In this document: piece by piece, positions 29-16,108 of the stretch | Numbering within the stretch: the first letter of the stretch is position 1 | How the letters are laid out: the number at the start of each line of letters is the position of its first letter | IMG/VR virus record: IMGVR_UViG_3300045988_124840 | DNA length: 16,108 nt | Source: a virus | Lineage: Duplodnaviria > Heunggongvirae > Uroviricota > Caudoviricetes | Reading direction: 5' to 3' (one strand) | Notes under the pieces: generated by a model | What the model saw: only the letters and a program-made list of their open reading frames with translations | Databases searched by the model: none | What the model was told of the DNA's origin: nothing | Translations under genes and position numbers: made by a program

Positions 29-55
29 AAAAAATAAGCCCGTGTAAGGGAGATT
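29..55. repeat. 27-bp P2-type attachment core, left copy (att junction next to int)
   Basis: AAAAAATAAGCCCGTGTAAGGGAGATT is present here and again, identically, at 16054..16080. It matches the P2 attP/attB core as I remember it and sits beside the 3' end of int. Confidence 0.85.
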
Positions 56-134
56 TAGGGTGTCACCAGTAGGGGCTTTCAACGGTACAATGCGGGTTTG
101 AGCGGCATAAATTACCACTGAAAGCCCTTAAACG

Positions 135-1148
135 TTACTCTACTGTGGACACTGTGTGGACACTCTCGACCTCAGTACCACCTCTTAGCGGATTAAGAGA
201 AATGGCGTCCTGAAGGTACTCTGGCGCAAAATGAGCGTAAACCATAGTTTGCTCAATCCGCGTGTGACCTAGTATCCGTTGTAGCGTGATAATACTTCCT
301 CCATTAATCATGAAATGAGTGGCAAAGCTGTGCCTTAGTGCATGTGTAGCTTGCCCCATTGGCAAATCCGGTTTTATTGCTTTCATTGTTCGTCTGAAGC
401 GAGGGTAATCAGCATCAGGGAATAAAAAACCTCGTTTGTTATCCGCGATCATTTTGGCAACAGCCTCTGAGATCGGGACGGTGCGTGGTTTGTTTGTTTT
501 CGTTTTAACAAACGTGACGCGGTTATGGATGATATTTTCTGCTTTCAAACGAGCTGCTTCTCCCCAACGTGCTCCAGTACTCAGGCAAAGAATCGCAATC
601 TTTTTGTTGTCGCCGTCAAGAGCAGCAAGCAGTAAGGCAATTTCTTCCTGCGTGAGATAGCCTGTGTCTGGTTTTTCCTCCTTAAGCCTTTTTGTCCCTC
701 TGATAGGGTGCTCACCAAAGAATAACTCCGCTTCAATCAGGGCTGTAAACATGCCGCTAATACATGTTAAATCACGATTGATACTCGAAGGTTTAATACC
801 CTGACTTCTTCGGGTGGCGCAGTACTGGCTGATAAGCGATTTCGTAATTTGAAATGCGCATGGGTCATTCGTTATTTTTGTGAAGATTTCAATTTTCCCA
901 AGATTAGATTTCCCATGCTCTTCGTGTTTACCCTTTAAATCCCACCAGATCTGTGTCAGCTCCGACAGACGTCGCTTGTCTGTTGGTTTTGATAGCCATT
1001 CTTTATTGTGGTGGTTGTACAACGTGTATTTCTCGAAAGCGACAGCTTCGCTTTTCTTATCAAACTTCCTACGGATGCGTTTTCCATTACGTCCAGTAGG
1101 GCGGATGTCCACTTCATATCGACCATCATCGAGTTTTTTGATTGCCAT
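135..1148 (-). CDS. int: P2-type tyrosine integrase (337 aa)
   Basis: 337-aa ORF with ATG at 1148. The C-terminal region has the tyrosine-recombinase pattern (ATHALRHSFATHF ... LGHTRIEQTMVYAHF). Size and position next to the att core, divergent from C, match P2 Int. Confidence 0.93.
   Translation of the reverse strand: MAIKKLDDGRYEVDIRPTGRNGKRIRRKFDKKSEAVAFEKYTLYNHHNKEWLSKPTDKRRLSELTQIWWDLKGKHEEHGKSNLGKIEIFTKITNDPCAFQITKSLISQYCATRRSQGIKPSSINRDLTCISGMFTALIEAELFFGEHPIRGTKRLKEEKPDTGYLTQEEIALLLAALDGDNKKIAILCLSTGARWGEAARLKAENIIHNRVTFVKTKTNKPRTVPISEAVAKMIADNKRGFLFPDADYPRFRRTMKAIKPDLPMGQATHALRHSFATHFMINGGSIITLQRILGHTRIEQTMVYAHFAPEYLQDAISLNPLRGGTEVESVHTVSTVE
144..163. promoter_or_regulatory. Tandem TGTGGACAC repeats, putative Int arm-type binding sites inside the int 3' end
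   Basis: TGTGGACAC occurs at 144..152 and 155..163, an 11-bp period. A similar pair, TGTGGTCA / TGTGGACG, lies at the other prophage end (15995..16013). Confidence 0.5.
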
Positions 1149-1263
1149 CAGAAAACCCTCCGAGTGGTGTGTTTTTTTGCGACTACTAATCGCTTTTTTC
1201 GTGGTGGCTGAAATTTAGCCACCAATAGTAGGCACTTGTGATGAATATATTCACGATGAATTG

Positions 1264-1563
1264 TTAACCAGTCTTTTGACCGGAGTGGGGCGACGTTGTT
1301 TCGTTTTGCCCAAAGTGTGCGAGAGCGGGCGCAATTTGCCCGGACTCAGGAGCGATCTGATTGGTCATGAACCATAAAGTGTATTTGGTGAATTGTGGGG
1401 TCTGCAGGATGTTCATCATGACATCTGTTGGAGGTGTTGAACGACCACTTTCATAGTAACTCAGCGTGCCATACGGAACCCCTGTTAAATCAGCAAGTTG
1501 TTGTCTGCTCAAATACTCTGATTTTCGCATTAAGACTATCTTCTCGCTTATCGTGTTTGACAT
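1264..1563 (-). CDS. C: Immunity repressor C (99 aa, helix-turn-helix)
   Basis: 99-aa ORF with ATG at 1563, divergent from cox. N-terminal HTH-like segment LSRQQLADLTGVPYGTLSYYE. Size and position match P2 repressor C. Confidence 0.9.
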   Translation of the reverse strand: MSNTISEKIVLMRKSEYLSRQQLADLTGVPYGTLSYYESGRSTPPTDVMMNILQTPQFTKYTLWFMTNQIAPESGQIAPALAHFGQNETTSPHSGQKTG

Positions 1564-1677
1564 GGTGTTTAGATCTCAATAGTATTTAGTTTAGATGTAG
1601 ATTGTTTAGTGCTTGGATGTGGGCACTAAAAGGCATTATAAGACATTAAACGCAATTCATGAGGGCTAGAGGACGAC
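1564..1677. promoter_or_regulatory. Lysogeny/lytic switch region between C and cox (Pe/Pc promoters with repressor operator repeats)
   Basis: Intergenic region between divergent C and cox. TTTAG(A/T) motifs recur at 1568, 1585, 1590 and 1605; TTTAGAT at 1568..1574 and 1590..1596 are 22 bp apart. Purine-rich RBS GAGGGCTAGAGGA precedes the cox ATG. Exact -35/-10 hexamers not assigned. Confidence 0.6.
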
Positions 1678-1953
1678 ATGAGCAAGCAAGTAACACTCAT
1701 GACTGATGCGATTCCTTATCAGGAGTTCGCAAAACTAATAGGAAAATCGACAGGAGCGGTTCGTCGGATGATCGATAAAGGAAAGCTGCCTGTAATTGAT
1801 ATGACCGATCCACAATCAGCTTCAGGTCGTGCAGGTGAATATTGGGTATACCTTCCGGCATGGAATAACGGACTAAAACTGGCTTATGAAAGCCGCCCTA
1901 AAGAGATTCGTGACGGCTGGTTGATGTGGTTAGGTCTCGGTGAACCACGTTAA
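1678..1953 (+). CDS. cox: Cox (91 aa): excision directionality factor and repressor of Pc
   Basis: 91-aa ORF, first gene of the rightward early operon, ATG at 1678 with upstream RBS. Size and position match P2 Cox. Confidence 0.9.
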   Translation: MSKQVTLMTDAIPYQEFAKLIGKSTGAVRRMIDKGKLPVIDMTDPQSASGRAGEYWVYLPAWNNGLKLAYESRPKEIRDGWLMWLGLGEPR

Positions 1954-1963
1954 GGAGAACCGT

Positions 1964-2134
1964 ATGAATGAGCCTCGTTGTATTGCTCAGTTACTGCGTA
2001 ACGAAAGCCCCAGGGCGATTGACTTCACCATCACCCACGGTAAGGGGCGTAAGGGAATCATTATCCGCACCAAAAAACAGAGTCCGTTAAAAAAGGCTCT
2101 GACCTTTCTGAAAAGCCGGAGGGTATGGAAATGA
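1964..2134 (+). CDS. Small early protein (P2 orf78-like, 56 aa)
   Basis: ATG at 1964 is preceded by AAGGAG (1952..1957). The track start at 1940 is GTG inside the cox 3' end. The stop overlaps the B start (ATGA). Confidence 0.7.
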   Translation: MNEPRCIAQLLRNESPRAIDFTITHGKGRKGIIIRTKKQSPLKKALTFLKSRRVWK

Positions 2135-2631
2135 CAGTGATGACGCTCAATCTCGTTGAAAAACAGCCAGCAGCTATGCGCCGGATAATTGGCAAGCATC
2201 TTGCCGTCCCTCGCTGGCAGGATACATGTGATTATTATAATCAGATGATGGAGCGCGAACGGCTAACGGTTTGCTTTCATGCACAGTTAAAACAGCGTCA
2301 CGCAACGATGCGTTTTGAAGAAATGAACGACGTCGAACGTGAACGGCTGGTTTGTGCAATTGATGAATTGCGTGGGGCATTCTCAAAACGCCGTCAGGTC
2401 GGCGCAAGTGAGTATGCATATATTAGTTTTTTAACAGTCAGTCAGCGTCGCACTTTATTTATGCACGCACGACTGACAGAAAAAGAATTCAACCAGCCAT
2501 ACTGGCGAATTAATGAAGAATCATGTTACTGGCGTGATGCTTTATTCCGTGCATTACGTGAATTATTCAGCCTGTTTGAGTATGCACCGACAATTCTGAC
2601 GTCGGTAAAACCAGAGCAATATCTGCATTAA
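2131..2631 (+). CDS. B: Replication protein B (166 aa; helicase-loader-like early protein)
   Basis: ATG at 2131 overlapping the orf78 stop, with GGAGGG RBS upstream. The 166-aa length matches P2 B. The track start at 2125 adds two residues. Confidence 0.85.
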   Translation: MTVMTLNLVEKQPAAMRRIIGKHLAVPRWQDTCDYYNQMMERERLTVCFHAQLKQRHATMRFEEMNDVERERLVCAIDELRGAFSKRRQVGASEYAYISFLTVSQRRTLFMHARLTEKEFNQPYWRINEESCYWRDALFRALRELFSLFEYAPTILTSVKPEQYLH

Positions 2632-2694
2632 GTAATTAATCAGAGTTTTTAACGCACTTAATTGTGCGGGGCTTCTTTTTGCCTGGAGAACGTC

Positions 2695-2919
2695 ATGCAT
2701 ACAGTTTCCGAAAATCAGTGCGGTAAATACGCATTACTGCTGCAACAGGCCAGAACCGAAGCACAGGCCGACGCAGCGACGCGCTTTTCTTCTCATCTTG
2801 ACGCCATGATTCGCCACATCACAAAGGCGGAGTTATCCCGCGTGGAGATAGTCGAGCTGCTCAGTCAGGAGTCGGAAAAATTTCACAATATCGGATTGTC
2901 TCGCGGGGAGGTGCTTTGA
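2695..2919 (+). CDS. Small early protein (P2 orf80-like, 74 aa)
   Basis: ATG at 2695 preceded by GGAGA. The track start at 2662 is TTG. The stop overlaps the next start. Confidence 0.65.
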
Positions 2920-3221
2920 TGTCCTGTTCTCGTTCAGTTGTATTACTGAATAACGCCTTAAAAATCACCGTTATGAAAAATGGCGATTTATCTCTTATTC
3001 AACTTGGTCTTGATAAAGAAAAACGCGAAATAACTGAGTCTGTTATCGCGATTTATCAGAACGAATTAAATCTCCTGTCTGATGTGGTCAATTTACTTGT
3101 TAAACGCGCTGTATTTCACAAGCAAATCTCCTCCGTGGATGAACTGACGAAATTAACGACAGAAATTGCCAGCTATTGCGCTGATGAATTTAAAAAACTT
3201 AACGACAAAAGGAGCTGGTAA
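2919..3221 (+). CDS. Small early protein (P2 orf81-like, 100 aa)
   Basis: ATG at 2919 overlapping the upstream TGA, with GGGGAGG RBS. Translationally coupled chain of small ORFs. Confidence 0.65.
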   Translation: MSCSRSVVLLNNALKITVMKNGDLSLIQLGLDKEKREITESVIAIYQNELNLLSDVVNLLVKRAVFHKQISSVDELTKLTTEIASYCADEFKKLNDKRSW

Positions 3222-3445
3222 TGCCGGACAACGTAGATTTTATTCAGGAACAACAGGCTGAATTACTGGAGCGTCAGATTAACGCGGCAAGGGTAAAACA
3301 TTGCGGTGCTTCTGCGCTGGTTTGCGAAGAGTGTGACGCGCCAATACCTGCTGCCCGTCGTGCGGCTTACCCGTCAGCCACGCGTTGTGTTTCCTGTCAG
3401 TCAGTCTTTGAAGCAAAAAACAAACATTACCGGAGAACGGCATGA
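3221..3445 (+). CDS. DksA/TraR-type C4 zinc-finger protein (P2 orf82-like, 74 aa)
   Basis: Two CxxC pairs (CEEC ... CVSC) separated by about 17 residues, the TraR/DksA zinc-finger pattern. GGAG RBS, TAATG stop/start overlap with orf81. Confidence 0.75.
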   Translation: MPDNVDFIQEQQAELLERQINAARVKHCGASALVCEECDAPIPAARRAAYPSATRCVSCQSVFEAKNKHYRRTA

Positions 3446-3717
3446 GTATTCGTATTGAAATTGGCGAACGTTATGTCGTTACCAGTGACAGCTTTCAGTT
3501 TATTCTCCACGAGAAAAAGAGAGCGGAAAGCGGTAAAAACGCCGGTCAGGAATGGCTGGCGGTGGTTGGTTATTACCCGAAATTAAGCCAGCTCGTTTCC
3601 GGCCTGATGCATCACGATATTCTGACCGGAAGCGCAAAGTCTTTTGCTGATTTAAACGCGCAGGTTGAGCAACTCAGCAAGCGTTGTTCAGAGGCTTTTG
3701 GCTCATATGGCCGTTAA
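3442..3717 (+). CDS. Small early protein (P2 orf83-like, 91 aa)
   Basis: ATG at 3442 overlaps the orf82 stop (ATGA). Its 3' end overlaps the start of A. Confidence 0.65.
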   Translation: MSIRIEIGERYVVTSDSFQFILHEKKRAESGKNAGQEWLAVVGYYPKLSQLVSGLMHHDILTGSAKSFADLNAQVEQLSKRCSEAFGSYGR

Positions 3718-5983
3718 AGCCTCCGGGCGTTTTGTCCCTCCGTCAGCATTTGCCGCAGGCACCGGTAAGACGTTTACCGGTGCTTATGCATGGAACGCGC
3801 CACGCGAGGCTGTCGGGCGCGAAAGACCCCTTACACGTGACGAGATGCGTCAGGTGCAAGGTGTTTTATCCACGATTAATCGCCAGCCTTACTTTTTGCG
3901 CTCGCTGTTTACTTCACGCTATGACTACATCCGGCGCAATAAAAGCCCGGTGCACGGGTTTTATTTCCTCACATCCACTTTTCAGCGTCGTTTATGGCCG
4001 CGCATTGAGCGCGTTAATCAGCGCCATGAAATGAACACCGACGCGTCGTTGCTGTTTCTGGCAGAGCGTGACCACTATGCGCGCCTGCCTGGAATGAATG
4101 ACAAGGAGCTGAAAAAGTTTGCCGCCCGTATCTCATCGCAGCTTTTCATAATGTATGAGGAACTCTGCGATGCCTGGGTGGATGCGCATGGCGAGAAAGA
4201 ATCGCTGTTTACGGATGAGGCGCAGGCTCACCTGTATGGTCATGTTGCTGGCGCTGCACGTGCTTTCAATATTTCCCCGCTCTACTGGAAAAAATACCGT
4301 AAAGGACAGATGACCACGAGGCAGGCATATTCTGCCATTGCCCGCCTGTTTAACGATGAGTGGTGGACTCATCAGCTTAAAGGCCAGCGTATGCGCTGGC
4401 ATGAGGCGTTACTGATTGCTGTCGGGGAGGTCAATAAAGACCGTTCTCCTTATGCCAGTAAACATGCCATTCGTGATGTGCGTGCACGCCGCCAGGCAAA
4501 TCTGGAATTTCTTAAATCGTGTGACCTTGAAAACAGGGAAACCGGCGAGCGCATCGACCTTATCAGTAAGGTGATGGGCAGTATTTCTAATCCTGAAATT
4601 CGCCGGATGGAGCTGATGAACACCATTGCCGGTATTGAGCGTTACGCCGCAGCAGAGGGTGATGTGGGGATGTTTATCACGCTGACCGCGCCGTCAAAGT
4701 ATCACCCGACACGTCAGGTCGGAAAAGGCGAAAGTAAAACCGTCCAGCTAAATCACGGCTGGAACGATGAGGCATTTAATCCAAAGGATGCGCAGCGTTA
4801 TCTCTGCCATATCTGGAGCCTGATGCGCACGGCATTCAAGGATAATGATTTACAGGTCTACGGTTTGCGTGTCGTCGAGCCACACCACGACGGAACGCCG
4901 CACTGGCATATGATGCTTTTTTGTAATCCACGCCAGCGTAACCAGATTATTGAAATCATGCGTCGCTATGCGCTCAAAGAGGATGGCGACGAAAGAGGAG
5001 CCGCGCGAAACCGTTTTCAGGCAAAACACCTTAACCGGGGCGGTGCTGCGGGATATATCGCGAAATACATCTCAAAAAACATCGACGGCTATGCACTGGA
5101 TGGTCAGCTCGATAATGATACCGGTAGGCCGCTGAAAGACACAGCTGCGGCTGTTACCGCATGGGCGTCAACGTGGCGCATTCCGCAATTTAAAACGGTT
5201 GGTCTGCCGACAATGGGGGCTTACCGTGAACTACGCAAATTGCCTCGCGGCGTCAGCATTGCTGATGAGTTTGACGAGCGCGTCGAGGCTGCACGCGCCG
5301 CTGCAGACAGTGGTGATTTTGCGTTGTATATCAGCGCGCAGGGCGGGGCAAATGTCCCGCGCGATTGTCAGACTGTCAGGGTCGCCCGTAGCCCGTCGGA
5401 TGACGTTAACGAGTACGAGGAAGAAGTCGAGAGAGTGGTCGGCATTTACGCGCCGCATCTCGGCGCGCGTCATATTCATATCACCAGAACGACGGACTGG
5501 CGCATTGTTCCGAAAGTGCCGGTCGTTGAGCCTTTGACTTTAAAAAGCGGCATCGCCGCGCCTCGGAGTCCTGTCAATAACTGTGGAAAGCTCACCGGTG
5601 GTGATACTTCGTTACCGGCTCCCACACCTTCTGAGCACGCCGCAGCCGTGCTTAATCTGGTTGATGACGGTGTTATCGAATGGAATGACCCGGAGGTCGT
5701 GAGGGCGCTCAGGGGCGCATTAAAACACGGCCTGAGAACACCAAACCGTCAGCAAAGAAACGGAAGCCCGTTAAAACCGAATGAAATAGCGCCATCGGCC
5801 AGGCTGACCCGGTCGGAGCGTATGCAAATTACCCGTATCCGCGTTGACCTTGCTCAGAACGGTATCAGGCCGCAGCGATGGGAGCTTGAGGCGCTGGCGC
5901 GTGGCGCGACCGTAAATTATTACGGGAAATCTTTCAATTATCAGGTCGCTGATGAGTGGCCTGGATTTTTGTTACCCATTTGA
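3707..5983 (+). CDS. A: Rolling-circle replication initiator/endonuclease A (HUH superfamily)
   Basis: Long ORF with an HUH-type motif (PHWHMMLF) and paired tyrosines (GYIAKYISKN), typical of P2 gpA-type nicking proteins. Start placed at the first ATG (3707, MAVKAS...). The track's 3665 start is TTG; an in-frame TTG at 3698 is also possible. Confidence 0.9.
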   Translation: MAVKASGRFVPPSAFAAGTGKTFTGAYAWNAPREAVGRERPLTRDEMRQVQGVLSTINRQPYFLRSLFTSRYDYIRRNKSPVHGFYFLTSTFQRRLWPRIERVNQRHEMNTDASLLFLAERDHYARLPGMNDKELKKFAARISSQLFIMYEELCDAWVDAHGEKESLFTDEAQAHLYGHVAGAARAFNISPLYWKKYRKGQMTTRQAYSAIARLFNDEWWTHQLKGQRMRWHEALLIAVGEVNKDRSPYASKHAIRDVRARRQANLEFLKSCDLENRETGERIDLISKVMGSISNPEIRRMELMNTIAGIERYAAAEGDVGMFITLTAPSKYHPTRQVGKGESKTVQLNHGWNDEAFNPKDAQRYLCHIWSLMRTAFKDNDLQVYGLRVVEPHHDGTPHWHMMLFCNPRQRNQIIEIMRRYALKEDGDERGAARNRFQAKHLNRGGAAGYIAKYISKNIDGYALDGQLDNDTGRPLKDTAAAVTAWASTWRIPQFKTVGLPTMGAYRELRKLPRGVSIADEFDERVEAARAAADSGDFALYISAQGGANVPRDCQTVRVARSPSDDVNEYEEEVERVVGIYAPHLGARHIHITRTTDWRIVPKVPVVEPLTLKSGIAAPRSPVNNCGKLTGGDTSLPAPTPSEHAAAVLNLVDDGVIEWNDPEVVRALRGALKHGLRTPNRQQRNGSPLKPNEIAPSARLTRSERMQITRIRVDLAQNGIRPQRWELEALARGATVNYYGKSFNYQVADEWPGFLLPI

Positions 5984-6243
5984 GTAAAAATGCAGCGTGA
6001 TTTTATATGCCTTTGAATGGATTATGCGAAGCGCCTCTAAGGCAGATGAGGAGCAATAGCATGCTGAAGTAGAAGGCTAAATTGTATTGAATCGCTAGCA
6101 TGTAATTTAAAGCAGCTATTTGATTCGAGTCATAAAAGAGCATCTATTTCGGCTAATAAAACCATTGCGAGTGACCTTTTGTCGAAGCATAATTCATCTC
6201 GAGCGAAGTCTTGCTAGTCTTTCATCGGAATGATGACAGGCGC

Positions 6244-6273
6244 AAAAAAACCACCCTGGCAGGTGGTTTTTTT
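6244..6273. terminator. Bidirectional intrinsic terminator
   Basis: AAAAAAACCACC / CTGGCA loop / GGTGGTTTTTTT: a perfect hairpin flanked by an A-tract and a T-tract, so it can terminate in either direction. It lies downstream of A (+) and directly downstream of the minus-strand small ORF at 6286..6399. Confidence 0.8.
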
Positions 6274-6285
6274 GTTTGAAGCATA

Positions 6286-6399
6286 CTAAAGAATAATACT
6301 TACATGGATATTACTGACGTTTACTGACAAACCACTTGGACTACCATATGGATAGCCAAAGAGGGCCAGAACGAGAATGCAGTAATAGCACTTCTTCAT
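6286..6399 (-). CDS. Hypothetical small hydrophobic peptide (37 aa, MKKCYYCILVLALFGYPYGSPSGLSVNVSNIHVSIIL)
   Basis: Not in the ORF track (too short). ATG at 6399..6397 is preceded on the minus strand by a near-consensus RBS AGGAGG with a 4-nt spacer. Hydrophobic N-terminal stretch; TAG stop at 6288..6286 followed by the terminator. Hand-translated. Confidence 0.4.
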   Translation of the reverse strand: MKKCYYCILVLALFGYPYGSPSGLSVNVSNIHVSIIL

Positions 6400-6971
6400 A
6401 TCTCCTCCTGTAAGCAGAGGGCAATTTCCGCCGATATATGCGCTTCTAAGGCGGAGTTACTATTTAGCGAAGTCTTGCCCTGAAATAATGCTCTGTTTAA
6501 ACGCAAAGTGATCTGGCATATCACCGAACAGAGAGCCTGAACAACACAACATATAGTATGTCGTTGTTTCTGGTTGCATTTTATGTTGTGTAATCCTGGT
6601 TTTGCATCAAGGATGTTTGAGCTTTTTTTGATATAGCTCAAAGTAAAAAGCAGAGACTACGGATGATAAGGTATTGAAAGCAATGTAAATTTTTTAAAGT
6701 TATTGGCGGCTAAAAAATGCACGGTTTCAATATGGTGGACTTAAATAAGCAATTAAAAAAGTCATAAATATCACTAAAATCATGGTGTTACGTTTTTTTT
6801 GTGGGAGCTGCGGTGACGCTTAAGTTGATTTGTCATTAAATAAGCCGTGCATGCAACAAGTGAATGTTTTTGCATGCGTCGGGGATGCCCGTTCCGGCTG
6901 CTTGCGGTCAGAGCTGGTGCGGATCCATAGTATCTATGCAACTGCATTAAAACCGCCACATGAAGCGGGCG

Positions 6972-6990
6972 GGCGAGGCGGGGAAAGCAC
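6972..6990. other. cos site: 19-nt P2-type cohesive end GGCGAGGCGGGGAAAGCAC
   Basis: Exact match to the P2/P4 cohesive-end sequence as I remember it. It is flanked on the left by a GC-richer segment (about 6800..6971), consistent with the cosR packaging region. Confidence 0.8.
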
Positions 6991-7150
6991 TGCGCGCAAA
7001 ATGTTCTTGAAATATTTGTGACATAAGCTAAGACACAAAATGATTGAAGGGCAGAGCAAATCCTACAGTCCTATGCTATTGTCTCATGTAATGCAGATAA
7101 GTTGAAAATTATCTTAAAATATAAGAGTAAAGACATTAAAAGGATTGGTT

Positions 7151-9412
7151 ATGAATAATAACTCTAAGTTATTAAGCTCTATCTCGGTTGAATCTGATTT
7201 CGAGAACCTTATAAAACTATATGCAAATGAGTTATTTGGTGGTGAAACATATCTGATCGGTGGTCCTTGGGATAATGGAAAGGATTTGGTAATAAAAAAG
7301 GGGAATAGAGAGTTAAAGCAAGCTGTACAAATATCTATTCAAGAGAAAAATATTGAAAGTAAGATTGCTCAAGATATTAAAAAAGTGGCGAAATTGGTTG
7401 ATGATCATTATTACCCGCCTGTATTATATTTTTTTTGGAGTCATTCAATATCTGAGCATTTATTGGATAAGATAAGAACAAATGCTCTTAAGGAAGATTT
7501 GATTAGATTGGAGTTTTATGATGCCAAACGGATCTCTCAAGATATTACAGATAAATACCCAGGGTTATTGAATTACTTAATAAAAGATATACATAAGATA
7601 AGTTCTAATACTGAAGATGCAATTAACTTGCAACAAAGAGCATTTTATGAATATTTATTGTTAAGCAAAGATAGTGCTAATTTAAAAAATGAAATAATAA
7701 AAGCTAGTATTATGTCTAATTTATATGATGGCGGGAAGTCTGCTGATGATATTCTAGAGAATCTAAAAGGTGTTAGTCTTACAAAACGTAGTTTACAGGG
7801 TAGACTGCAAAACCTAATTCATCAAAATAAAATTAGATTGAATGATGGTATATATAGCCTGTCACCAGAGGAAATTAAAAAGCTTGAGAATATAAATCTC
7901 CGTGAAATTGTCAGAAAAGAAGAGTTGTTATCAGTAATAAATAATGAGTTGCCCAGAAATACAAGTAAGAATCTGGCTGTTCAAGTTGTTGATTTAATAA
8001 TAAAGGCTTATGAAGAATCAATAAATGTCCAATTAACAGAAAGTAAATTTGAGCCTCCAAAATTACAGATATTCAAAACTATAGTACATAATTTAAAGGT
8101 GTTGATACGGCAGGAATATGATTTGGATGATGAGTCTTCGGATGCTTTAGCAAAAAAGCTAATGGAGTTGGCTGGTCAAAATGACTATTTATCCGAGCAT
8201 TGCTCTGCTAAATTATGTGTGAATCTTTTAAGTGATCGGAAATTAGAGAAATATATTGAAAATAAAAATTTTTATATCTACTTTGATGCGCCTGTTCTTA
8301 TTCCATATTTGATAACTCTTATGTTTGGAGATTTTGAGCTTTTTGATAAGTCGATTAAAAATATAAATTTACTGAGAGAGTGCATAAATCCCCTCAAAAA
8401 TAAACATCTGAGAGTTTCTAATGAACATTTTGAAGAAACTGCAAGGCACTACTCTGAAGCTGAAAAATTAAGTCAGTTTGTAACTGAAGATTTAATTAGT
8501 CAACTTGGTGAGTCGAAAAATGTATACTTTAATGTTTATATGCGGTGGAAAAACAAACAGCCTAAACGTACAGATTTTTACGATTTTACTTATGCTTTTC
8601 TAGGGTTGGATAAAGATGATATTTATGCGGGGTATAAGCATGACACATTTGCGCAATGCATTCATAATTTACTAGCGTCAGCAAATATTGTTGTAATTGA
8701 TAATAAAGACTCGGTGTCACAAGACTTTGTATTTAAAATAAAGCAAAAACTTAAAAGGGATTTGAATTCTTCACGTCCCGTTCGAGCCATAGAAAATGAT
8801 GTTATATGTGCTGCAACTTTGAGTGATGAAACCCTACATCTTGATTCCAATGGTTACTTCAGTACTCCCATGCTAATAACACTTGATAGATCTCAATATC
8901 TATTGAGAAGCATAGTAAGAAATGAAAGGAGACATGCTGAATGGTTGGTTTATACCCCTCAAAGAGCAATTGAACGTCTTTCCTTGGTGGGTTTAAAAAT
9001 ATCATCGGAATCGTTAAAGGATGGTGTTTTAGCAACCATATCAGAAGAATATTTCTTTAAAGAAAGTTCCAGTAGTTTGATTGATACTTTGGCTATTATC
9101 ATTGGAGATAATCAAGCAAGGCAAGGAGATGTTATTAGGCTTGCATCGCTTTTAAAAAGAAAGGTCAATGAGGAATCTATTGAGAATTCAGAAATTGATA
9201 TTGAACACTATAATAACATTAGTTATGTGCTTCTTTTCATTCATCGTGAATTTAAATCTGAATTTTCAAATATAATAAAAATTTTTGCTGAGGATAGTAG
9301 GCGAGATAAACTGGTTGAAGTTTTGTTATCCACTATTCAAGGAGTTTTTGATGAGAGTAAAAAGGAAATCTTGCGCTCAAATATAGGACGGTTGTTGGCT
9401 GAAATGGGATGA
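7151..9412 (+). CDS. Hypothetical AT-rich cargo protein (753 aa); possible N-terminal Mrr-like PD-(D/E)xK nuclease fold, rest unknown; candidate anti-phage defence protein
   Basis: Single long ORF with codon usage unlike the P2 backbone (AT-rich, Lys/Asn/Ile-rich). ATG at 7151 preceded by AAAGGA with a 6-nt spacer; the track start at 7145 is TTG. N-terminal segment FENLIKLYANELFGGETYLIGGPWDNGKDLVI ... QAVQISIQEK resembles the D-x-G-x-D ... Q-x-K core of Mrr-type restriction-endonuclease domains. No Walker A motif seen. Function is inferred from context only. Confidence 0.75.
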   Translation: MNNNSKLLSSISVESDFENLIKLYANELFGGETYLIGGPWDNGKDLVIKKGNRELKQAVQISIQEKNIESKIAQDIKKVAKLVDDHYYPPVLYFFWSHSISEHLLDKIRTNALKEDLIRLEFYDAKRISQDITDKYPGLLNYLIKDIHKISSNTEDAINLQQRAFYEYLLLSKDSANLKNEIIKASIMSNLYDGGKSADDILENLKGVSLTKRSLQGRLQNLIHQNKIRLNDGIYSLSPEEIKKLENINLREIVRKEELLSVINNELPRNTSKNLAVQVVDLIIKAYEESINVQLTESKFEPPKLQIFKTIVHNLKVLIRQEYDLDDESSDALAKKLMELAGQNDYLSEHCSAKLCVNLLSDRKLEKYIENKNFYIYFDAPVLIPYLITLMFGDFELFDKSIKNINLLRECINPLKNKHLRVSNEHFEETARHYSEAEKLSQFVTEDLISQLGESKNVYFNVYMRWKNKQPKRTDFYDFTYAFLGLDKDDIYAGYKHDTFAQCIHNLLASANIVVIDNKDSVSQDFVFKIKQKLKRDLNSSRPVRAIENDVICAATLSDETLHLDSNGYFSTPMLITLDRSQYLLRSIVRNERRHAEWLVYTPQRAIERLSLVGLKISSESLKDGVLATISEEYFFKESSSSLIDTLAIIIGDNQARQGDVIRLASLLKRKVNEESIENSEIDIEHYNNISYVLLFIHREFKSEFSNIIKIFAEDSRRDKLVEVLLSTIQGVFDESKKEILRSNIGRLLAEMG

Positions 9413-9426
9413 TTTCTTGGTTATTG

Positions 9427-9459
9427 AACGGCACTATGGTCGTTGCTTATAGTGCCGTT
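9427..9459. terminator. Stem-loop between the convergent cargo gene and Q (possible terminator)
   Basis: AACGGCACTA ... TAGTGCCGTT, a 10-bp perfect stem with a 13-nt loop, followed by only TT. A second short hairpin TGCCATT-ATG-AATGGCA lies at 9471..9487. Neither has a strong U-tract. Confidence 0.35.
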
Positions 9460-9503
9460 TTAAGGTGTCGTGCCATTATGAATGGCATATCCGAGTTTAT
9501 ATA

Positions 9504-10538
9504 TTAGGTATCGCAAGTATCTAGTGAGTAGTTTTTAAAGCGGATGACCTCCTGACCGAGCCAGCCGTTTATCTCGCGGATCCTGTCCTGTAACGGGATA
9601 AGCTCATTGCGGACAAAGACCTTTGCCACTTTCTCAATATCGCCCAGTGACCCGACGTTCTCCGGCTTGCCGCCCATCAACTGAAAGGGGATGCGGTGCG
9701 CGTCCAGTAGGTCAGCGGCGCTGGCTTTTTTGATATTAAAAAAATCGTCCTTCGTTGCGACTTCACTGAGCGGGATAATTTTAATGCCGTCGGCTTTCCC
9801 CTGTGGGGCATAGAGAAACAGATTTTTAAAGTTGTTGCGGCCTTTCGACTTCACCATGTTTTCGCGGAGCATTTCGATATCGTTGCGATCCTGCACGGCA
9901 TCAGTGACGTACATGATGTATCCGGCATGTGCGCCGTTTTCGTAATACTTGCGGCGGAACAGCGTGGCCGACTCATTCAGCCAGGCAGAGTTAAGGGCGC
10001 TGAGATATTCCGGCAGGCCGTACAACTCCTGATTAATATCCGGCTCCAGCAGGTGAAACACGGAGCCGGGCGCGAAGGCTGTCGGTTCGTTGAAGGACGG
10101 CACCCACCAGTAAACATCCTCTTCCACCCCACGGCGGGTATATTTTGCCGGTGAGGTTTCCAGTCTGATGACCTTACCGGTGGTGCTGTAACGCTTTTCC
10201 AGAAACGCATTACCGAACACCAGAAAATCCAGCACAAAGCGGCTGAAATCCTGTTGTGAAAGCCACGGATGCGGGATAAATGTCGAGGCCAGAATATTAC
10301 GTTTGACGTAAATCGGTGAGCTGTGATGTACGGCAGCACGCAGGCTTTTTGCCAGACCGGTAAAGCTGACCGGTGGCTCATACCATCTGCCGTTACTGAT
10401 GCACTCGACGTAATCCAGAATGTCACGGCGGTCGAGTACCGGCACCGGCTCACCAAAGGTGAATGCCTCCATTTTCGGGGCGCTGGCGGTCATTGTTTTT
10501 GCCGCAGGTTGCGGTGTTTTCCCTTTTTTCTTGCTCAT
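9504..10538 (-). CDS. Q: Portal protein Q (344 aa)
   Basis: 344-aa ORF with ATG at 10538, lying near cos on the minus strand as in P2. Its start overlaps the stop of the upstream P-derived frame by 1 nt (TGATG). Length matches P2 gpQ. Confidence 0.9.
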   Translation of the reverse strand: MSKKKGKTPQPAAKTMTASAPKMEAFTFGEPVPVLDRRDILDYVECISNGRWYEPPVSFTGLAKSLRAAVHHSSPIYVKRNILASTFIPHPWLSQQDFSRFVLDFLVFGNAFLEKRYSTTGKVIRLETSPAKYTRRGVEEDVYWWVPSFNEPTAFAPGSVFHLLEPDINQELYGLPEYLSALNSAWLNESATLFRRKYYENGAHAGYIMYVTDAVQDRNDIEMLRENMVKSKGRNNFKNLFLYAPQGKADGIKIIPLSEVATKDDFFNIKKASAADLLDAHRIPFQLMGGKPENVGSLGDIEKVAKVFVRNELIPLQDRIREINGWLGQEVIRFKNYSLDTCDT

Positions 10539-10745
10539 CAGTAAAACTCCAGAATGGTGGATGTCAGCGGGGTGCTGATACCGGCGGTGAGTGGCTCATT
10601 TAACAGGGCGTGCATGGTCGCCCAGGCGAGGTCGGCGTGGCTGGCTTCCTCGCTGCGGCTGGCCTCATAGGTGGCGCTGCGTCCGCTGCTGGTCATGGTC
10701 TTGCGGATAGCCATAAACGAGCTGGTGATGTCGGTGGCGCTGACG
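10538..10745 (-). pseudogene. P: Truncated terminase large-subunit gene P (C-terminal ~68 codons only)
   Basis: Minus-strand frame ending ...LTAGISTPLTSTILEFY with its stop overlapping the Q start, the P2 P–Q arrangement. Upstream of about 10745 the same frame runs antisense to FII-like coding sequence, so only the 3' end of P is left. The upper boundary is approximate. Confidence 0.5.
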
Positions 10746-10750
10746 TCGTA

Positions 10751-11071
10751 TTCCCGGATTCGGTTATCTGGGAGCTTTACGCCGCAACCGGTGTGGATGC
10801 CGTCCCGATTCGTTTTGCTGGCTCTTACCAGCGCGACGATACCGGCGAAACGGTGGCCGTCGAGGTGGTCATGCGTGGCCGTCAGAAAGAAATCGACACC
10901 GGCGAGGGTAAACAGGGAGAAGACACCGAGTCGAAAATCTCCGTGGTCTGCACCTATTTCCGGCTGACGATGGACGGTAAGGAGCTGGTCGAAATCGACA
11001 CCATTAACATGATTGAGAAGGTGAACGGCGTCGACCGGCTGGAGCAACACCGCCGCAATATCGGCCTGTGA
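10751..11071 (+). pseudogene. FII: 5'-truncated tail tube gene FII (C-terminal ~105 codons)
   Basis: The C-terminal part of the + ORF (FPDSVIWELYAATGVDAVPIRFAGSYQRDD ... VNGVDRLEQHRRNIGL) is protein-like, matches the P2 FII C-terminus as I remember it, and sits in the expected place just upstream of E. The first ~47 residues of the track ORF look like non-coding read-through. No start codon or RBS for a full-length FII. The 5' boundary is approximate. Confidence 0.6.
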
Positions 11072-11127
11072 TTTTCATCCGGTCAGCCAGGCTGACCGGT
11101 TAACCCCGATTCAGAAGTGAGAAAACC

Positions 11128-11403
11128 ATGAACAAAGAAAATGTGATTACCCTGGACAATCCGGTCAAGCGTGGTGAGCAGGTTATCGAACAGGTCACGC
11201 TGATGAAACCCAATGCCGGGACGCTGCGCGGTGTCAGTCTGGCAGCGGTCGCGAACTCCGAAGTCGATGCACTGATTAAGGTGCTGCCGCGCATGACAGC
11301 ACCGATGCTGACCGAGCAGGAGGTCGCCGCGCTGGAACTGCCTGACCTTGTGGCGCTGGCCGGTAAGGTGGTCGGTTTTTTGTCGCCGAACTCGGTGCAG
11401 TGA
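11128..11403 (+). CDS. E: Tail assembly chaperone E (91 aa)
   Basis: 91-aa ORF directly upstream of the tape-measure gene. Contains the slippery T-run near its 3' end (see E+E'). Confidence 0.88.
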   Translation: MNKENVITLDNPVKRGEQVIEQVTLMKPNAGTLRGVSLAAVANSEVDALIKVLPRMTAPMLTEQEVAALELPDLVALAGKVVGFLSPNSVQ

Positions 11404-11555
11404 CGTTTCCGAAAAATCTGTCGGTCGATGACCTGATGGCGGATGTGGCTGTGATATTTCACTGGCCGCCATCAGAACTGTACCCCATGAGCCTGACCGA
11501 ACTCATCACATGGCGCGAAAAGGCGCTCCGGCGAAGCGGAAACACGAATGAGTAA
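11128..11555 (+). CDS. E+E': E+E' tail chaperone fusion made by programmed -1 ribosomal frameshift
   Basis: Slippery heptamer-like run GGTTTTTTG at 11374..11382 (six T's at 11376..11381). The -1 frame stays open from there to TAA at 11553..11555, overlapping the T start by 8 nt. This parallels the conserved G/GT-type chaperone frameshift upstream of tape-measure genes. Confidence 0.75.
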
Positions 11556-13995
11556 CAATGTAAAATTACAGGTATTGCTCAGGGCTGTTGACCAGGCATC
11601 CCGCCCGTTTAAATCCATCCGCACAGCGAGTAAGTCGCTGTCGGGGGATATCCGGGAAACACAAAAATCACTGCGCGAGCTGAACGGTCACGCATCCCGT
11701 ATTGAGGGATTCCGCAAGACCAGTGCACAGCTCGCCGTGACTGGTCATGCACTTGAAAAGGCACGGCAGGAGGCCGAAGCCCTTGCCACACAGTTTAAAA
11801 ATACCGAACGACCGACCCGTGCTCAGGCGAAAGTGCTGGAATCCGCAAAGCGAGCGGCGGAGGACTTACAGGCGAAATATAACCGCCTGACGGATTCCGT
11901 TAAACGCCAGCAGCGGGAACTGGCCGCTGTGGGAATTAATACCCGCAATCTTGCACATGATGAGCAGGGGCTGAAAAACCGTATCAGTGAAACCACCGCA
12001 CAGCTTAACCGTCAGCGCGACGCACTGGCGCGTGTCAGTGCACAACAGGCAAAACTTAACGCAGTAAAACAGCGTTATCAGGCCGGAAAGGAACTGGCCG
12101 GAAATATGGCCTCAGTGGGCGCTGCCGGTGTGGGGATTGCTGCTGCGGGAACGATGGCCGGTGTTAAGCTGCTGATGCCCGGTTATGAGTTTGCGCAGAA
12201 AAACTCAGAATTGCAGGCTGTGCTCGGTGTGGCAAAAGACTCCGCCGAAATGGCCGCATTACGCAAACAGGCGCGCCAGCTCGGCGACAATACCGCCGCC
12301 TCGGCAGATGATGCAGCCGGTGCGCAGATTATTATTGCGAAAGCCGGTGGGGATGTTGATGCCATTCAGGCGGCAACGCCGGTCACGCTGAACATGGCGC
12401 TGGCGAACCGCCGCACGATGGAAGAAAACGCCGCCCTGCTGGTGGGGATGAAATCCGCCTTTCAGCTTTCAAACGATAAGGTCGCTCATATCGGGGATGT
12501 TCTCTCCATGACGATGAACAAAACCGCCGCCGATTTTGACGGCATGAGCGATGCGCTGACCTATGCCGCACCTGTGGCAAAAAATGCCGGTGTCAGCATT
12601 GAAGAAACCGCCGCAATGGTCGGGGCGCTGCATGATGCAAAAATCACAGGCTCAATGGCGGGGACGGGAAGCCGTGCCGTGTTAAGCCGCCTGCAGGCAC
12701 CGACGGGAAAAGCGTGGGATGCACTGAAAGAGCTTGGTGTGAAAACCTCAGACAGCAAGGGAAACACCCGACCAGTATTTACCATTCTGAAAGAAATGCA
12801 GGCCAGTTTTGAGAAAAACCGGCTCGGTACTGCCCAGCAGGCCGAATACATGAAAACCATTTTCGGGGAGGAGGCCAGCTCAGCCGCCGCTGTGCTGATG
12901 ACTGCCGCGTCAACCGGAAAGCTGGACAAACTGACCGCTGCGTTTAAAGCCTCAGACGGGAAGACCGCCGAGCTGGTAAATATCATGCAGGACAACCTCG
13001 GCGGTGACTTTAAGGAGTTTCAGTCCGCTTATGAGGCGGTGGGGACTGACCTGTTTGACCAGCAGGAAGGCGCGCTGCGTAAGCTCACGCAGACGGCCAC
13101 AAAGTATGTGTTAAAACTTGACGGCTGGATACAGAAAAACAAATCACTGGCGTCAACCATCGGCCTCATTGCCGGTGGCGCACTGGCGCTTACTGGCATC
13201 ATCGGTGCCATTGGCCTTGTAGCCTGGCCGGTTATCACTGGCATCAATGCCATTATCGCGGCAGCAGGCGCAATGGGGGCAATCTTCACGACGGTTAGCA
13301 GTGCTGTTATGACGGCCATCGGGGCGATTAGCTGGCCGGTTGTGGCCGTGGTGGCCGCCATTGTCGCCGGGGCGTTGCTTATCCGTAAATACTGGGAGCC
13401 TGTCAGCGCATTCTTTGGCGGTGTGGTTGAAGGGCTGAAAGCGGCATTTGCGCCGGTGGGGGAACTGTTCACGCCACTGAAGCCGGTGTTTGACTGGCTG
13501 GGTGAAAAGTTACAGGCCGCGTGGCAGTGGTTTAAAAACCTGATTGCCCCGGTCAAAGCCACCCAGGACACCCTGAACCGTTGCCGTGACACGGGCGTCA
13601 TGTTCGGGCAGGCACTGGCTGACGCGCTGATGCTGCCGCTTAATGCGTTCAACAAACTGCGCAGTGGCATTGACTGGGTACTGGAAAAACTCGGTGTTAT
13701 CAACAAAGAGTCAGACACACTTGACCAGACCGCCGCCAGAACTCAAGCCGCCACGTATGGCAGCGGTGGTTATATTCCGGCGACCAGCTCTTATGCAGGC
13801 TATCAGGCTTATCAGCCGGTCACGGCACCGGCTGGCCGCTCTTATGTAGACCAGAGTAAAAACGAATATCACATCAACCTGACGGGTGGTACTGTGCCGG
13901 GGACACAGCTTGACCGCCAGTTACAGGATGCGCTTGAAAAATACGAGCGGGATAAACGTGCGCGCGCCCGTGCCAGCATGATGCATGACGGTTAA
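11548..13995 (+). CDS. T: Tail tape measure protein T (815 aa)
   Basis: 815-aa ORF with a coiled-coil-like N-terminal half and a long Gly/Ala/Ile-rich hydrophobic block (LASTIGLIAGGALALTGIIGAIGLVAWPVITGINAIIAAAGAMGAIF...), typical of tape-measure proteins. Size matches P2 gpT. Confidence 0.92.
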   Translation: MSNNVKLQVLLRAVDQASRPFKSIRTASKSLSGDIRETQKSLRELNGHASRIEGFRKTSAQLAVTGHALEKARQEAEALATQFKNTERPTRAQAKVLESAKRAAEDLQAKYNRLTDSVKRQQRELAAVGINTRNLAHDEQGLKNRISETTAQLNRQRDALARVSAQQAKLNAVKQRYQAGKELAGNMASVGAAGVGIAAAGTMAGVKLLMPGYEFAQKNSELQAVLGVAKDSAEMAALRKQARQLGDNTAASADDAAGAQIIIAKAGGDVDAIQAATPVTLNMALANRRTMEENAALLVGMKSAFQLSNDKVAHIGDVLSMTMNKTAADFDGMSDALTYAAPVAKNAGVSIEETAAMVGALHDAKITGSMAGTGSRAVLSRLQAPTGKAWDALKELGVKTSDSKGNTRPVFTILKEMQASFEKNRLGTAQQAEYMKTIFGEEASSAAAVLMTAASTGKLDKLTAAFKASDGKTAELVNIMQDNLGGDFKEFQSAYEAVGTDLFDQQEGALRKLTQTATKYVLKLDGWIQKNKSLASTIGLIAGGALALTGIIGAIGLVAWPVITGINAIIAAAGAMGAIFTTVSSAVMTAIGAISWPVVAVVAAIVAGALLIRKYWEPVSAFFGGVVEGLKAAFAPVGELFTPLKPVFDWLGEKLQAAWQWFKNLIAPVKATQDTLNRCRDTGVMFGQALADALMLPLNAFNKLRSGIDWVLEKLGVINKESDTLDQTAARTQAATYGSGGYIPATSSYAGYQAYQPVTAPAGRSYVDQSKNEYHINLTGGTVPGTQLDRQLQDALEKYERDKRARARASMMHDG

Positions 13996-14009
13996 GGAGG
14001 TGACGAAAA

Positions 14010-14489
14010 ATGATGCTCGCGTTAGGTATGTTTGTTTTTATGCGCCAGACGCTGCCACACCAGACCATGCAGCGTGAATCAGATTATCGCTGGCCGTCAA
14101 ATTCCCGTATCGGTAAACGGGATGCCTTTCAGTTTCTCGGCGTTGGCGAGGAAAACATCACGCTTGCCGGTGTGCTTTATCCCGAGCTGACCGGCGGAAA
14201 GCTGACGATGACCACGCTCAGGCTGATGGCAGAGGAAGGTCGGGCGTGGCCGTTGCTGGATGGCACCGGCATGATTTACGGCATGTATGTCATCAGCAGG
14301 GTGAGTGAAACAGGGAGTATTTTCTTTGCAGACGGCACACCCCGAAAAATTGATTTTACGCTGTCGCTCACCCGCGTTGATGAATCACTGGCCGCGCTTT
14401 ATGGCGATATCGGTAAACAGGCGGAATCGCTCATCGGTAAGGCTGGCAGTATGGCGACTAAATTCACGGGTATGACGGGGGCGGGATAA
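14010..14489 (+). CDS. U: Tail protein U (159 aa)
   Basis: 159-aa ORF with AAGGAGG RBS at 13994..14000. Position between T and D and size match P2 gpU. Confidence 0.88.
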   Translation: MMLALGMFVFMRQTLPHQTMQRESDYRWPSNSRIGKRDAFQFLGVGEENITLAGVLYPELTGGKLTMTTLRLMAEEGRAWPLLDGTGMIYGMYVISRVSETGSIFFADGTPRKIDFTLSLTRVDESLAALYGDIGKQAESLIGKAGSMATKFTGMTGAG

Positions 14490-15652
14490 TGCTGGATGCG
14501 CTGACATTTGATGCAGGCAGTACGCTGACACCGGATTACATGCTGATGCTCGACAGCAGGGATATTACCGGCAATATCAGCGACCGTCTGATGAGCATGA
14601 CCCTGACGGATAACCGGGGCTTTGAGGCTGACCAGCTTGATATTGAACTGAACGATGCCGACGGGCAGGTCGGGCTGCCGGTTCGTGGCGCTGTCCTGAC
14701 GGTGTATATCGGCTGGAAAGGTTTTGCCCTGGTATGCAAAGGGAAATTTACCGTTGATGAGGTTGAACACCGGGGCGCGCCGGATGTGGTTACCATCCGC
14801 GCCCGGAGTGCAGATTTTCGCGGGACGCTCAATTCCCGCCGGGAAGGCTCATGGCATGACACCACGCTCGGTGCGATTGTTGAGGCGATAGCCTCCCGTA
14901 ACAGGCTGGAAGCCAGTGTCGCGCCGTCACTGGCCGGAATTAAAATCCCGCACATCGACCAGTCGCAGGAGTCTGATGCAAAATTCCTGACCCGCCTTGC
15001 TGAACGCAACGGCGGTGAGGTGTCGGTAAAAATGGGAAAATTGTTGTTTCTCAAAGCGGGGCAGGGGGTGACGGCCAGTGGTAAAAAAATCCCGCAGATT
15101 ACCATCACCCGCAGCGACGGCGACCGTCATCATTTTGCGATTGCTGACCGTGGAGCCTACACCGGCGTAACGGCAAAGTGGTTACACACCAAAGACCCGA
15201 AGCCGCAAAAGCAGAAGGTAAAACTGAAACGCAAAAAGAAAGAGAAACACCTGCGCGCACTGGAGCACCCGAAAGCGAAACCGGTCAGGCAGAAGAAAGC
15301 GCCAAAAGTACCGGAAGCGCGCGAAGGTGAATACATGGCCGGTGAGGCTGACAACGTTTTTGCCCTGACCACGGTATATGCCACGAAAGCACAGGCCATG
15401 CGTGCTGCTCAGGCGAAGTGGGATAAACTGCAACGGGGCGTTGCGGAGTTCTCCATCATCCTGGCTACCGGTCGTGCAGATATTTACACGGAAACACCGG
15501 TCAGAGTGTCAGGCTTTAAGCGCGTCATAGACGAGCAGGACTGGACAATCACTAAGGTGACACATTTTCTGAATAATAGCGGCTTCACGACGTCCTTGGA
15601 GCTTGAGGTCAGGCTTTCTGATGTGGAGTACGAAACAGAAGATGATGAGTGA
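14489..15652 (+). CDS. D: Tail protein D (387 aa; late-gene-control D)
   Basis: 387-aa ORF whose start overlaps the U stop (ATGA-type junction). Size and position match P2 gpD. Contains a Lys-rich low-complexity linker (KPQKQKVKLKRKKKEKH...). Confidence 0.88.
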   Translation: MLDALTFDAGSTLTPDYMLMLDSRDITGNISDRLMSMTLTDNRGFEADQLDIELNDADGQVGLPVRGAVLTVYIGWKGFALVCKGKFTVDEVEHRGAPDVVTIRARSADFRGTLNSRREGSWHDTTLGAIVEAIASRNRLEASVAPSLAGIKIPHIDQSQESDAKFLTRLAERNGGEVSVKMGKLLFLKAGQGVTASGKKIPQITITRSDGDRHHFAIADRGAYTGVTAKWLHTKDPKPQKQKVKLKRKKKEKHLRALEHPKAKPVRQKKAPKVPEAREGEYMAGEADNVFALTTVYATKAQAMRAAQAKWDKLQRGVAEFSIILATGRADIYTETPVRVSGFKRVIDEQDWTITKVTHFLNNSGFTTSLELEVRLSDVEYETEDDE

Positions 15653-15733
15653 TGTTTTGTTTTTATCTGTTTGTTTTATAAGGATAAATTAACTAAAATG
15701 GCACCATTAACAAAACCGGAAGAGGTGCTCGCG

Positions 15734-15952
15734 ATGTTTCATTGTCCTTTATGCCAGCATGCCGCACATGCGCGTACAAGCCGCTATATCACTGACACGA
15801 CAAAAGAGCGTTATCACCAGTGCCAGAACGTGAATTGCAGCGCCACGTTCATCACTTATGAGTCGGTACAGCGATACATCGTGAAGCCGGGAGAAGTCCA
15901 CGCCGTGAGGCCGCACCCGTTGCCGTCAGGGCAGCAAATTATGTGGATGTAA
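15734..15952 (+). CDS. ogr: Ogr late transcription activator (72 aa, zinc finger)
   Basis: From the internal ATG at 15734 the product is MFHCPLCQHAAHARTSRYITDTTKERYHQCQNVNC..., with the C-x2-C ... C-x4-C zinc-binding pattern of P2 Ogr. The track start at 15671 adds 21 residues and is probably not used. Confidence 0.9.
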   Translation: MFHCPLCQHAAHARTSRYITDTTKERYHQCQNVNCSATFITYESVQRYIVKPGEVHAVRPHPLPSGQQIMWM

Positions 15953-15962
15953 TTACAAACAG

Positions 15963-15989
15963 AAAGCCCCTCAGTCGAGGGGCTTTTTT
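15963..15989 (+). terminator. Intrinsic terminator downstream of ogr
   Basis: AAAGCCCCTC / AGTC loop / GAGGGGCTTT followed by a T-run (GC-rich stem plus U-tract). Confidence 0.8.
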
Positions 15990-15994
15990 GTCGA

Positions 15995-16013
15995 TGTGGT
16001 CAATGTGTGGACG
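15995..16013. promoter_or_regulatory. Tandem TGTGG(T/A)C repeats, putative Int arm-type sites in the ogr-side att arm
   Basis: TGTGGTCA at 15995..16002 and TGTGGACG at 16006..16013, 11-bp period. Same motif family as the repeats at 144..163. Confidence 0.45.
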
Positions 16014-16053
16014 TGACCAGAAATAAATCCTTTTATTTCAATTTGTTGTACGT

Positions 16054-16080
16054 AAAAAATAAGCCCGTGTAAGGGAGATT
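16054..16080. repeat. 27-bp P2-type attachment core, right copy (att junction next to ogr)
   Basis: Identical 27-mer to 29..55. Together they define prophage ends with int at one side and ogr at the other, as in integrated P2. Confidence 0.85.
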
Positions 16081-16108
16081 ACACAGGCTAAGGAGGTGGT
16101 TCCTGGTA

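Follow-up and report, generated by a model that had tools for sequence, protein, structure and literature searches.

We analysed a 16,108-nt stretch of DNA catalogued as a virus of the Caudoviricetes (IMG/VR record IMGVR_UViG_3300045988_124840; hereafter the window, meaning the whole stretch), and found that it is a P2-like (Peduovirus) prophage integrated at the locH/cyaR attachment site. The prophage is very probably an ordinary, young, defective element that arose by a single deletion between short stretches of microhomology and has since been inherited clonally. A BLAST search of the window against P2 (NC_001895) gave five collinear blocks with 97–98% nucleotide identity, distributed as follows, and the remaining parts of P2 were not found in the window:

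29–5967: P2 24356–30294, containing the att core, int, C, cox, orf78, B, orf80–83 and A
6943–6997: cos, P2 33546–33593 followed by P2 1–26
9516–10754: P2 199–1437, containing Q and the 3' end of P
10751–16080: P2 19053–24382, containing FII from codon 67, E, T, U, D, ogr and the att core

Seventeen P2 proteins were matched at 95–100% amino-acid identity, and two stretches of the window, 5968–6942 and 6998–9515, are not derived from P2. The Q–P and FII blocks share 4 nt, TTCC, where three features meet:

10538..10754, minus strand: remnant of P (terminase large subunit), comprising the 217 nt at its 3' end (1 nt, 71 codons and the stop codon)
10751..10754: deletion junction, where P2 1437 is joined to P2 19053 through the TTCC microhomology
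10751..11071, plus strand: 3' part of the tail-tube gene FII, codons 67–172, 100% identical to P2 FII

With a slash marking the break, the P2 sequence is CGTATTCC/AGACAG at the left endpoint and GGCTTCC/CGGATT at the right endpoint; the window reads CGTATTCCCGGATT. The missing segment, P2 1438–19056, is 17,619 bp long and, according to the P2 annotation, covers 21 complete genes as well as every one of the four Ogr-dependent late promoters, which lie within P2 3016–3127, 10239–10308 and 17555–17628. Gone are most of P; O, N, M, L, X, Y, K, lysA/B/C, R, S and orf30; and V, W, J, I, H, G, fun(Z), FI and the first 66 codons of FII. At the junction, the minus-strand frame matches Pfam Terminase_6C and the plus-strand frame matches Phage_tube, and an Rfam scan detected no RNA. 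The window does not contain the complete gene set of a plaque-forming phage (terminase, capsid, lysis, baseplate, fibre, sheath, tube and late promoters), and it is not an R-type tailocin, FI and V through G being absent and FII truncated. Chimeric open reading frames run across the junction on both strands (153 amino acids on the plus strand, 170 on the minus strand); we rejected them as new fusion genes because each consists of an antisense stretch and a gene fragment, with no promoter-like site nearby.

Outside the deletion, the phage genes and sites are preserved, together with one gene foreign to P2:

135..1148, minus strand: int, integrase, full length, 337 amino acids, 99.4% identical to P2 Int
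1264..1563, minus strand: C, immunity repressor, 99 amino acids, 100% identical to P2 C
1678..1953, plus strand: cox, excisionase/repressor, 91 amino acids, 100% identical to P2 Cox
2131..2631, plus strand: B, replication (lagging strand), full length
3707..5983, plus strand: A, rolling-circle replication endonuclease, P2 residues 1–754 of 761 matched without gaps
6943..6997: cos region, with the 19-nt cohesive-end sequence GGCGAGGCGGGGAAAGCAC at 6972–6990
7151..9412, plus strand: cargo gene in the A–cos–Q hotspot, on the Q side of cos, 753 amino acids, ~30% GC
9504..10538, minus strand: Q, portal protein, intact, 344 amino acids; its P-operon promoter is lost
11128..15652, plus strand: tail genes E, T, U and D, all full length; their F-operon promoter is lost
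15734..15952, plus strand: ogr, late-gene activator, 72 amino acids, 100% identical to P2 Ogr

Neither gaps nor frameshifts interrupt int, C, cox, orf78, B, orf80–83, Q, E, T, U, D and ogr, whose full-length products are 95–100% identical to their P2 counterparts, and the frame of A ends a few codons past the match at residue 754. The origin nick site (~5564/5565) lies inside A, within 60 nt identical to P2; the cohesive end is preceded by 29 conserved bases and followed by 7, after which P2 homology stops. No promoter-like sites were found in window positions 9454–11600, and hence Q and the series from truncated FII through E, T, U and D are without promoters. The window thus resembles P2 in gene order, in its identical C, cox and ogr, and in sharing its att core, origin and 19-nt cohesive end; it differs in lacking P2 1438–19056, in carrying another segment in place of orf91, tin and old, and in having 2.5 kb of cargo in place of P2 27–198.

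Most of this structure had been anticipated in a first-pass annotation made from the sequence alone, which described a stub of P joined to a truncated FII that continues into E, T, U, D and ogr, the absence of the capsid, lysis, baseplate, fibre and sheath genes and of the late promoters, and the retention of int, cox, the att sites, A/B, cos and the cargo. The comparison with P2, together with the Pfam matches, bears out each of these points: the absent genes fall inside P2 1438–19056, and the retained ones are intact by sequence. The breakpoint had been placed near 10745–10751, within a few bases of where we found it, and a check for microhomology had been suggested, which the 4-nt TTCC repeat now answers. 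The P remnant does lie on the minus strand, but its length had been put at ~68 codons, fewer than the 71 codons, stop codon and 1 nt observed. Both P and FII are correctly assigned, given that the FII part is 100% identical to P2 and that Pfam agrees in both frames, and the missing genes do not lie in rearranged order just outside the window, since its flanks, and the next 5 kb in longer contigs, are host chromosome.

The site of integration is defined by three features at the ends of the window:

29..55: attL core, 27 bp, AAAAAATAAGCCCGTGTAAGGGAGATT, an exact match to the P2 attP core
16054..16080: attR core, 27 bp, identical to the attL core at 27/27 positions
16057..16108, minus strand: 3' part of the host small RNA gene cyaR (ryeE), RF00112, 67.7 bits in an Rfam scan

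The 27-bp core occurs exactly twice in the window, at 29 and 16054, and the 28 nt beyond it on each side are host chromosome. The window closes with 52 bases from the 3' part of cyaR, the phage att core regenerating the terminator of the small RNA; the insertion site is thus P2 locH, between yegR and cyaR/trhP, an arrangement also seen in annotated genomes that have the same flanks. In E. coli K-12, locH is where the ogrK/D' remnant resides. Each end of the window lies 55 nt (28 nt of host and 27 nt of core) from the inner edge of an att core, which matches what an assembly graph with k=55 would give if an empty locH site co-occurred in the metagenome. Such an empty site, belonging to another strain or left by excision, is probably present in the sample.

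We found the same deletion elsewhere, as the first-pass annotation had proposed to check, in metagenome contigs but not in complete E. coli genomes (none of 5,426). The contigs were located by exact-protein look-up of a 144-amino-acid open reading frame that spans the junction (10637–11071) and is on no fewer than 24 contigs (37 index blocks) belonging to different ENA assemblies; look-ups with three other start-codon choices gave no match. These contigs are up to 83 kb long, those of 83 kb and 71 kb running into the chromosome, and, over stretches of as much as 15.5 kb, differ from the window by no more than one base. All are at one chromosomal site, with trhP (trhP/yegQ), yegP, baeRS and mdtD on the right flank, which is 100% identical to that of strain 1218KP over 5 kb. 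A metagenome scaffold of 16,108 bp (ERZ28638702, sample SAMEA5814513) differs from the window at a single base, position 10804 in the FII fragment. This position has three states: P2 has G, the window and ERZ857775 have C, and three other contigs, one of them the 16,108-bp scaffold, have A. None of 50,697 phage records contains the junction, and scans of IMG/VR, JGI metagenomes, and GTDB genomes and representatives with exact 30-mers and degenerate 19-mers returned either nothing or chance matches of 19–22 nt to unrelated organisms. From these null scans the junction had looked like a unique allele, a view overturned by the protein look-up. One site, identical flanks and near-zero divergence form a pattern that, judged by sequence, indicates a single clone rather than a mobile element.

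Strain 1218KP (NZ_CM173878.1, 1768100–1778400) carries the same prophage at the same site with the same cargo. Its cargo region is 100% identical to the window over 3.7 kb, and outside a 300-bp patch the two copies differ by two single-nucleotide polymorphisms (SNPs) and one insertion/deletion. Yet 1218KP has three deletions unlike that of the window: from cox to A, from P (leaving a stub to P2 1502) to J, and from H to D. Each copy therefore keeps genes that the other has lost, so both must derive from a more complete ancestor through independent, recent deletions. Of the 19 mismatches between the two copies, 17 fall in window positions 5518–5821, which looks like a recombination patch in gene A; an IS3 element adjoins the 1218KP copy. 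Within the set of junction contigs, 16 form a sub-lineage with an IS1 element inside the cargo gene, so that some members of the population already carry an inactivated cargo. The end of this IS1 occupies positions 1–139 of the ERZ27246463 stretch (to which 15 contigs are similar), corresponding to approximately window 8329. Looking beyond this lineage, we identified 16 other complete E. coli genomes with different deletions of the same central block, at locH, cpxP/fieF and pflB, leaving remnants of 10.3 to 20 kb with no preferred size. These alleles were found by their likeness to the window, and the sample is hence biased with respect to which genes are lost.

We favour decay as the explanation because 1218KP has suffered different deletions, because a sub-lineage has been hit by IS1 and because many other P2-like prophages have been deleted independently. 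The decaying remnant, which the first-pass annotation had offered as its alternative, is thus the better supported of its two proposals. On this account, illegitimate recombination between TTCC in P and TTCC in FII, probably by replication slippage or microhomology end-joining, would have removed 17,619 bp in one event. The resulting remnant can neither assemble heads and tails nor lyse its host or package DNA. Q, E, T, U and D are promoterless, presumably silent relics, still too young to have decayed. Because the deletion spared the early region, C and Int are most likely still expressed from Pc; expression of C would confer immunity to phages of P2 immunity, with the cargo gene carried along, and the remnant is passed on vertically in one E. 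coli lineage. Cryptic P2-derived prophages are familiar from the ogrK/D' remnant at locH in K-12 and from a defective E. coli B prophage. The window prophage has a single deletion, is otherwise undamaged, and is presumably much less decayed than the K-12 remnant. Two observations weigh against this account. Intact int, cox, att sites, origin, cos and ogr would be needed equally by a mobilisable element, so that their intactness does not discriminate; and selection, instead of a recent origin, could be the reason why a 16-kb remnant has stayed unbroken in a widespread lineage.

The cargo gene bears on the possibility of selection. Its segment (6998–9515, 2.5 kb, low GC, with a single open reading frame) occupies the hotspot between A and Q, next to cos, which is known in P2 as a location for defence genes (Rousset et al.). 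The 753-amino-acid protein has no match in Pfam, PADLOC or NCBIfam; its predicted domains are a Mrr/PD-(D/E)xK-like nuclease, a winged helix and a PIN-like domain, and its AlphaFold model has a mean predicted local distance difference test score of 82.9. All 46 homologues, from Enterobacterales, Vibrio, Aeromonas and Pseudomonas, are labelled hypothetical; Mrr_cat was matched weakly by 6 of 27 homologues, and the Vibrio parahaemolyticus homologue is located in an integrase/IS/DndB/VapE island. It is plausible that the cargo is a single-protein anti-phage nuclease. The other non-P2 stretch, 5968–6942, lies between A and cos where P2 has orf91, tin and old; it spans ~1 kb, contains no long open reading frame and is 99% identical in many P2-like prophages.

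We reasoned that the prophage could be a domesticated remnant from which the host gains P2 immunity, through C, and the cargo without the risk of lysis, such that deletions of the late block are favoured and the rest is kept. Many independent deletions do take the same capsid/lysis block while sparing the early region, cos and hotspot cargo, and the cargo gene of the window occupies a known defence hotspot and has predicted nuclease-like domains. However, the deletions were found by resemblance to the window, which biases the sample towards exactly this pattern, the cargo gene is broken by IS1 in 16 contigs, and 1218KP has lost cox through A. Moreover, tail genes without conceivable use are as intact as the rest, which argues that intactness reflects youth and not selection. 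Domestication is hence a possible explanation, though an unlikely one.

The deletion derivatives also show a pattern in the placement of their endpoints. We compared the endpoints of 17 deletion alleles within P2 coordinates 750–7000 and 10600–21200, and observed that endpoints recur in different combinations. On the left, P2 1456/1457 was used three times, and 1502 and 2117 twice each; on the right, 18031/18032, 18473/18476 and 18220/18224 were each used twice. By our own reading of the junction alignments, TA is present in 10 of the 15 junctions that have at least 2 nt of microhomology, whereas a table of exact matches gives seven, the other three being masked by SNPs between the loci and the P2 reference. 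Random endpoint pairs would yield TA in 2.7% of cases (binomial p ~6e-13 for the count of ten; p ~2e-7 if only roughly unique sites are counted). TA usually follows GG, as in GGTAACC, GGTAAG, GGATAAC and GGGTA (G at −2 in 11 of 14 sites, p = 3e-4), and the only two GGTAACC sites in the right-hand region were each used twice. The bias of the sample shapes which genes are lost, but should not create exact coincidences of endpoints or a preference for TA.

Several candidate causes of these hot spots were rejected: P2 has no Chi site; P2 1390–1540 folds no better than shuffled sequences, which disfavours a local hairpin; the nick site of the A protein is unrelated; likeness to the att core is seen for the site at P2 1502 but not for its partner sites; the published determinants of gyrase/Topo IV (−4G, −2A, −1T/+5A, +6T, +8C) fit only the site at 1457; and BstEII-type sites (GGTNACC) account for two right-hand hot spots but not for other GGTNACC sites or the left-hand partners. 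A literature search on deletion hot spots in P2 prophages found nothing relevant. One could propose that deletions in P2-like prophages are channelled to a few GG-TA sites by a breakage and rejoining process with sequence preference, repeatedly producing a mini-P2 that is cos+ ori+ int+ and keeps immunity and cargo, and that some of these elements, including the 16-kb one studied here, are perhaps mobilised as multimers by heteroimmune helpers. We consider this combined proposal improbable. The TTCC junction of the window lacks the TA signature, its endpoints lying 20 nt and 14 nt from two recurrent sites.

The first-pass annotation had raised the further possibility of a satellite-like lifestyle, for which we found no support. 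According to this idea, infection by a heteroimmune P2-like phage would be followed by Int/Cox excision, replication from the element's own A, B and origin, cutting at cos by the helper terminase, and packaging in helper capsids, probably as a 32-kb dimer; such transfer, if it occurs, would spread the cargo gene. The requirements for independent integration and excision, replication and a packaging site recognised by the helper are present, int, cox, A, B, ori and the cos core, along with ogr, being intact by sequence and the att cores identical at 27/27 positions, and a dimer of 2 x 16,052 bp would measure 32.1 kb, ~96% of P2. Heads of P2 size can take up P4 multimers, though with low efficiency (PMC6893505), P2 packages cos plasmids (PMC9942202), and Sp13 of O157 Sakai, a P2-like prophage lacking the majority of its morphogenesis genes, is still able to excise and replicate, with low-level packaging (PMC2669165). 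Mobilisation is thus physically possible. Nevertheless, the junction is confined to one chromosomal locus with identical flanks and near-zero divergence, and was not found in the phage records, IMG/VR or the complete E. coli genomes. Genes like sid, psu, delta and epsilon that manipulate a helper are absent, all but 5968–6942 and 6998–9515 being P2 sequence; the cargo has no helper-manipulating domain, and ogr is the helper's own activator. Since C is identical to P2 C, homoimmune helpers would be repressed, and only heteroimmune or virulent relatives could help. As a monomer, 16.05 kb (48% of P2) fits neither the P2 nor the P4 capsid, and only a dimer would fill a P2 head; the other deletion derivatives (10–20 kb) do not cluster at a packageable size, and the sister copies decay further. 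We therefore regard helper-dependent mobilisation as very unlikely. Spread of the cargo by homologous recombination with an infecting P2-like phage would be more likely, because the cargo is flanked by the conserved genes A and Q.

Several known systems can be compared with the window prophage. Like Sp13 (PMC2669165), it is P2-derived, integrated and missing morphogenesis genes; unlike Sp13, it has no epsilon-like derepressor that we could find. With P4 and P4-like satellites it shares its own integrase and replication genes, a P2-type cos, the absence of capsid genes and a cargo hotspot near cos. However, it lacks sid, psu, delta, epsilon and the P4 alpha primase, is not sized for a small capsid, and is a deletion derivative of the helper itself that shares the helper's immunity and shows no sign of horizontal spread. 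Phages of the lambda dgal type and P2/P4 cos plasmids (PMC9942202) likewise have cos DNA that can be packaged only by proteins supplied in trans, but these are laboratory constructs or rare excision products, whereas the window prophage is a stable resident of the chromosome. Lastly, that metagenome assembly wrongly joined P and FII reads into a chimeric contig is almost certainly wrong: although the join rests on only four shared bases and the window has the same span as a metagenome scaffold one base apart from it, the identical junction recurs across different assemblies and samples in at least 24 contigs, of which some are 70–83 kb long and run into the chromosome, and closely analogous junctions occur in complete genomes.

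Taken alone, the window prophage matters little, defective P2 prophages being well known as a kind. Its value is as a clean, datable case of the first step in prophage decay, with one deletion and nothing else broken; 1218KP took another route and a daughter lineage has been hit by IS1, which together provide a reference point for the speed at which P2-like prophages are dismantled. It is also useful as the carrier of an uncharacterised nuclease-like hotspot gene. The reuse of deletion endpoints could matter more than the window prophage itself: if confirmed on thousands of genomes, it would indicate a specific mechanism of prophage inactivation.
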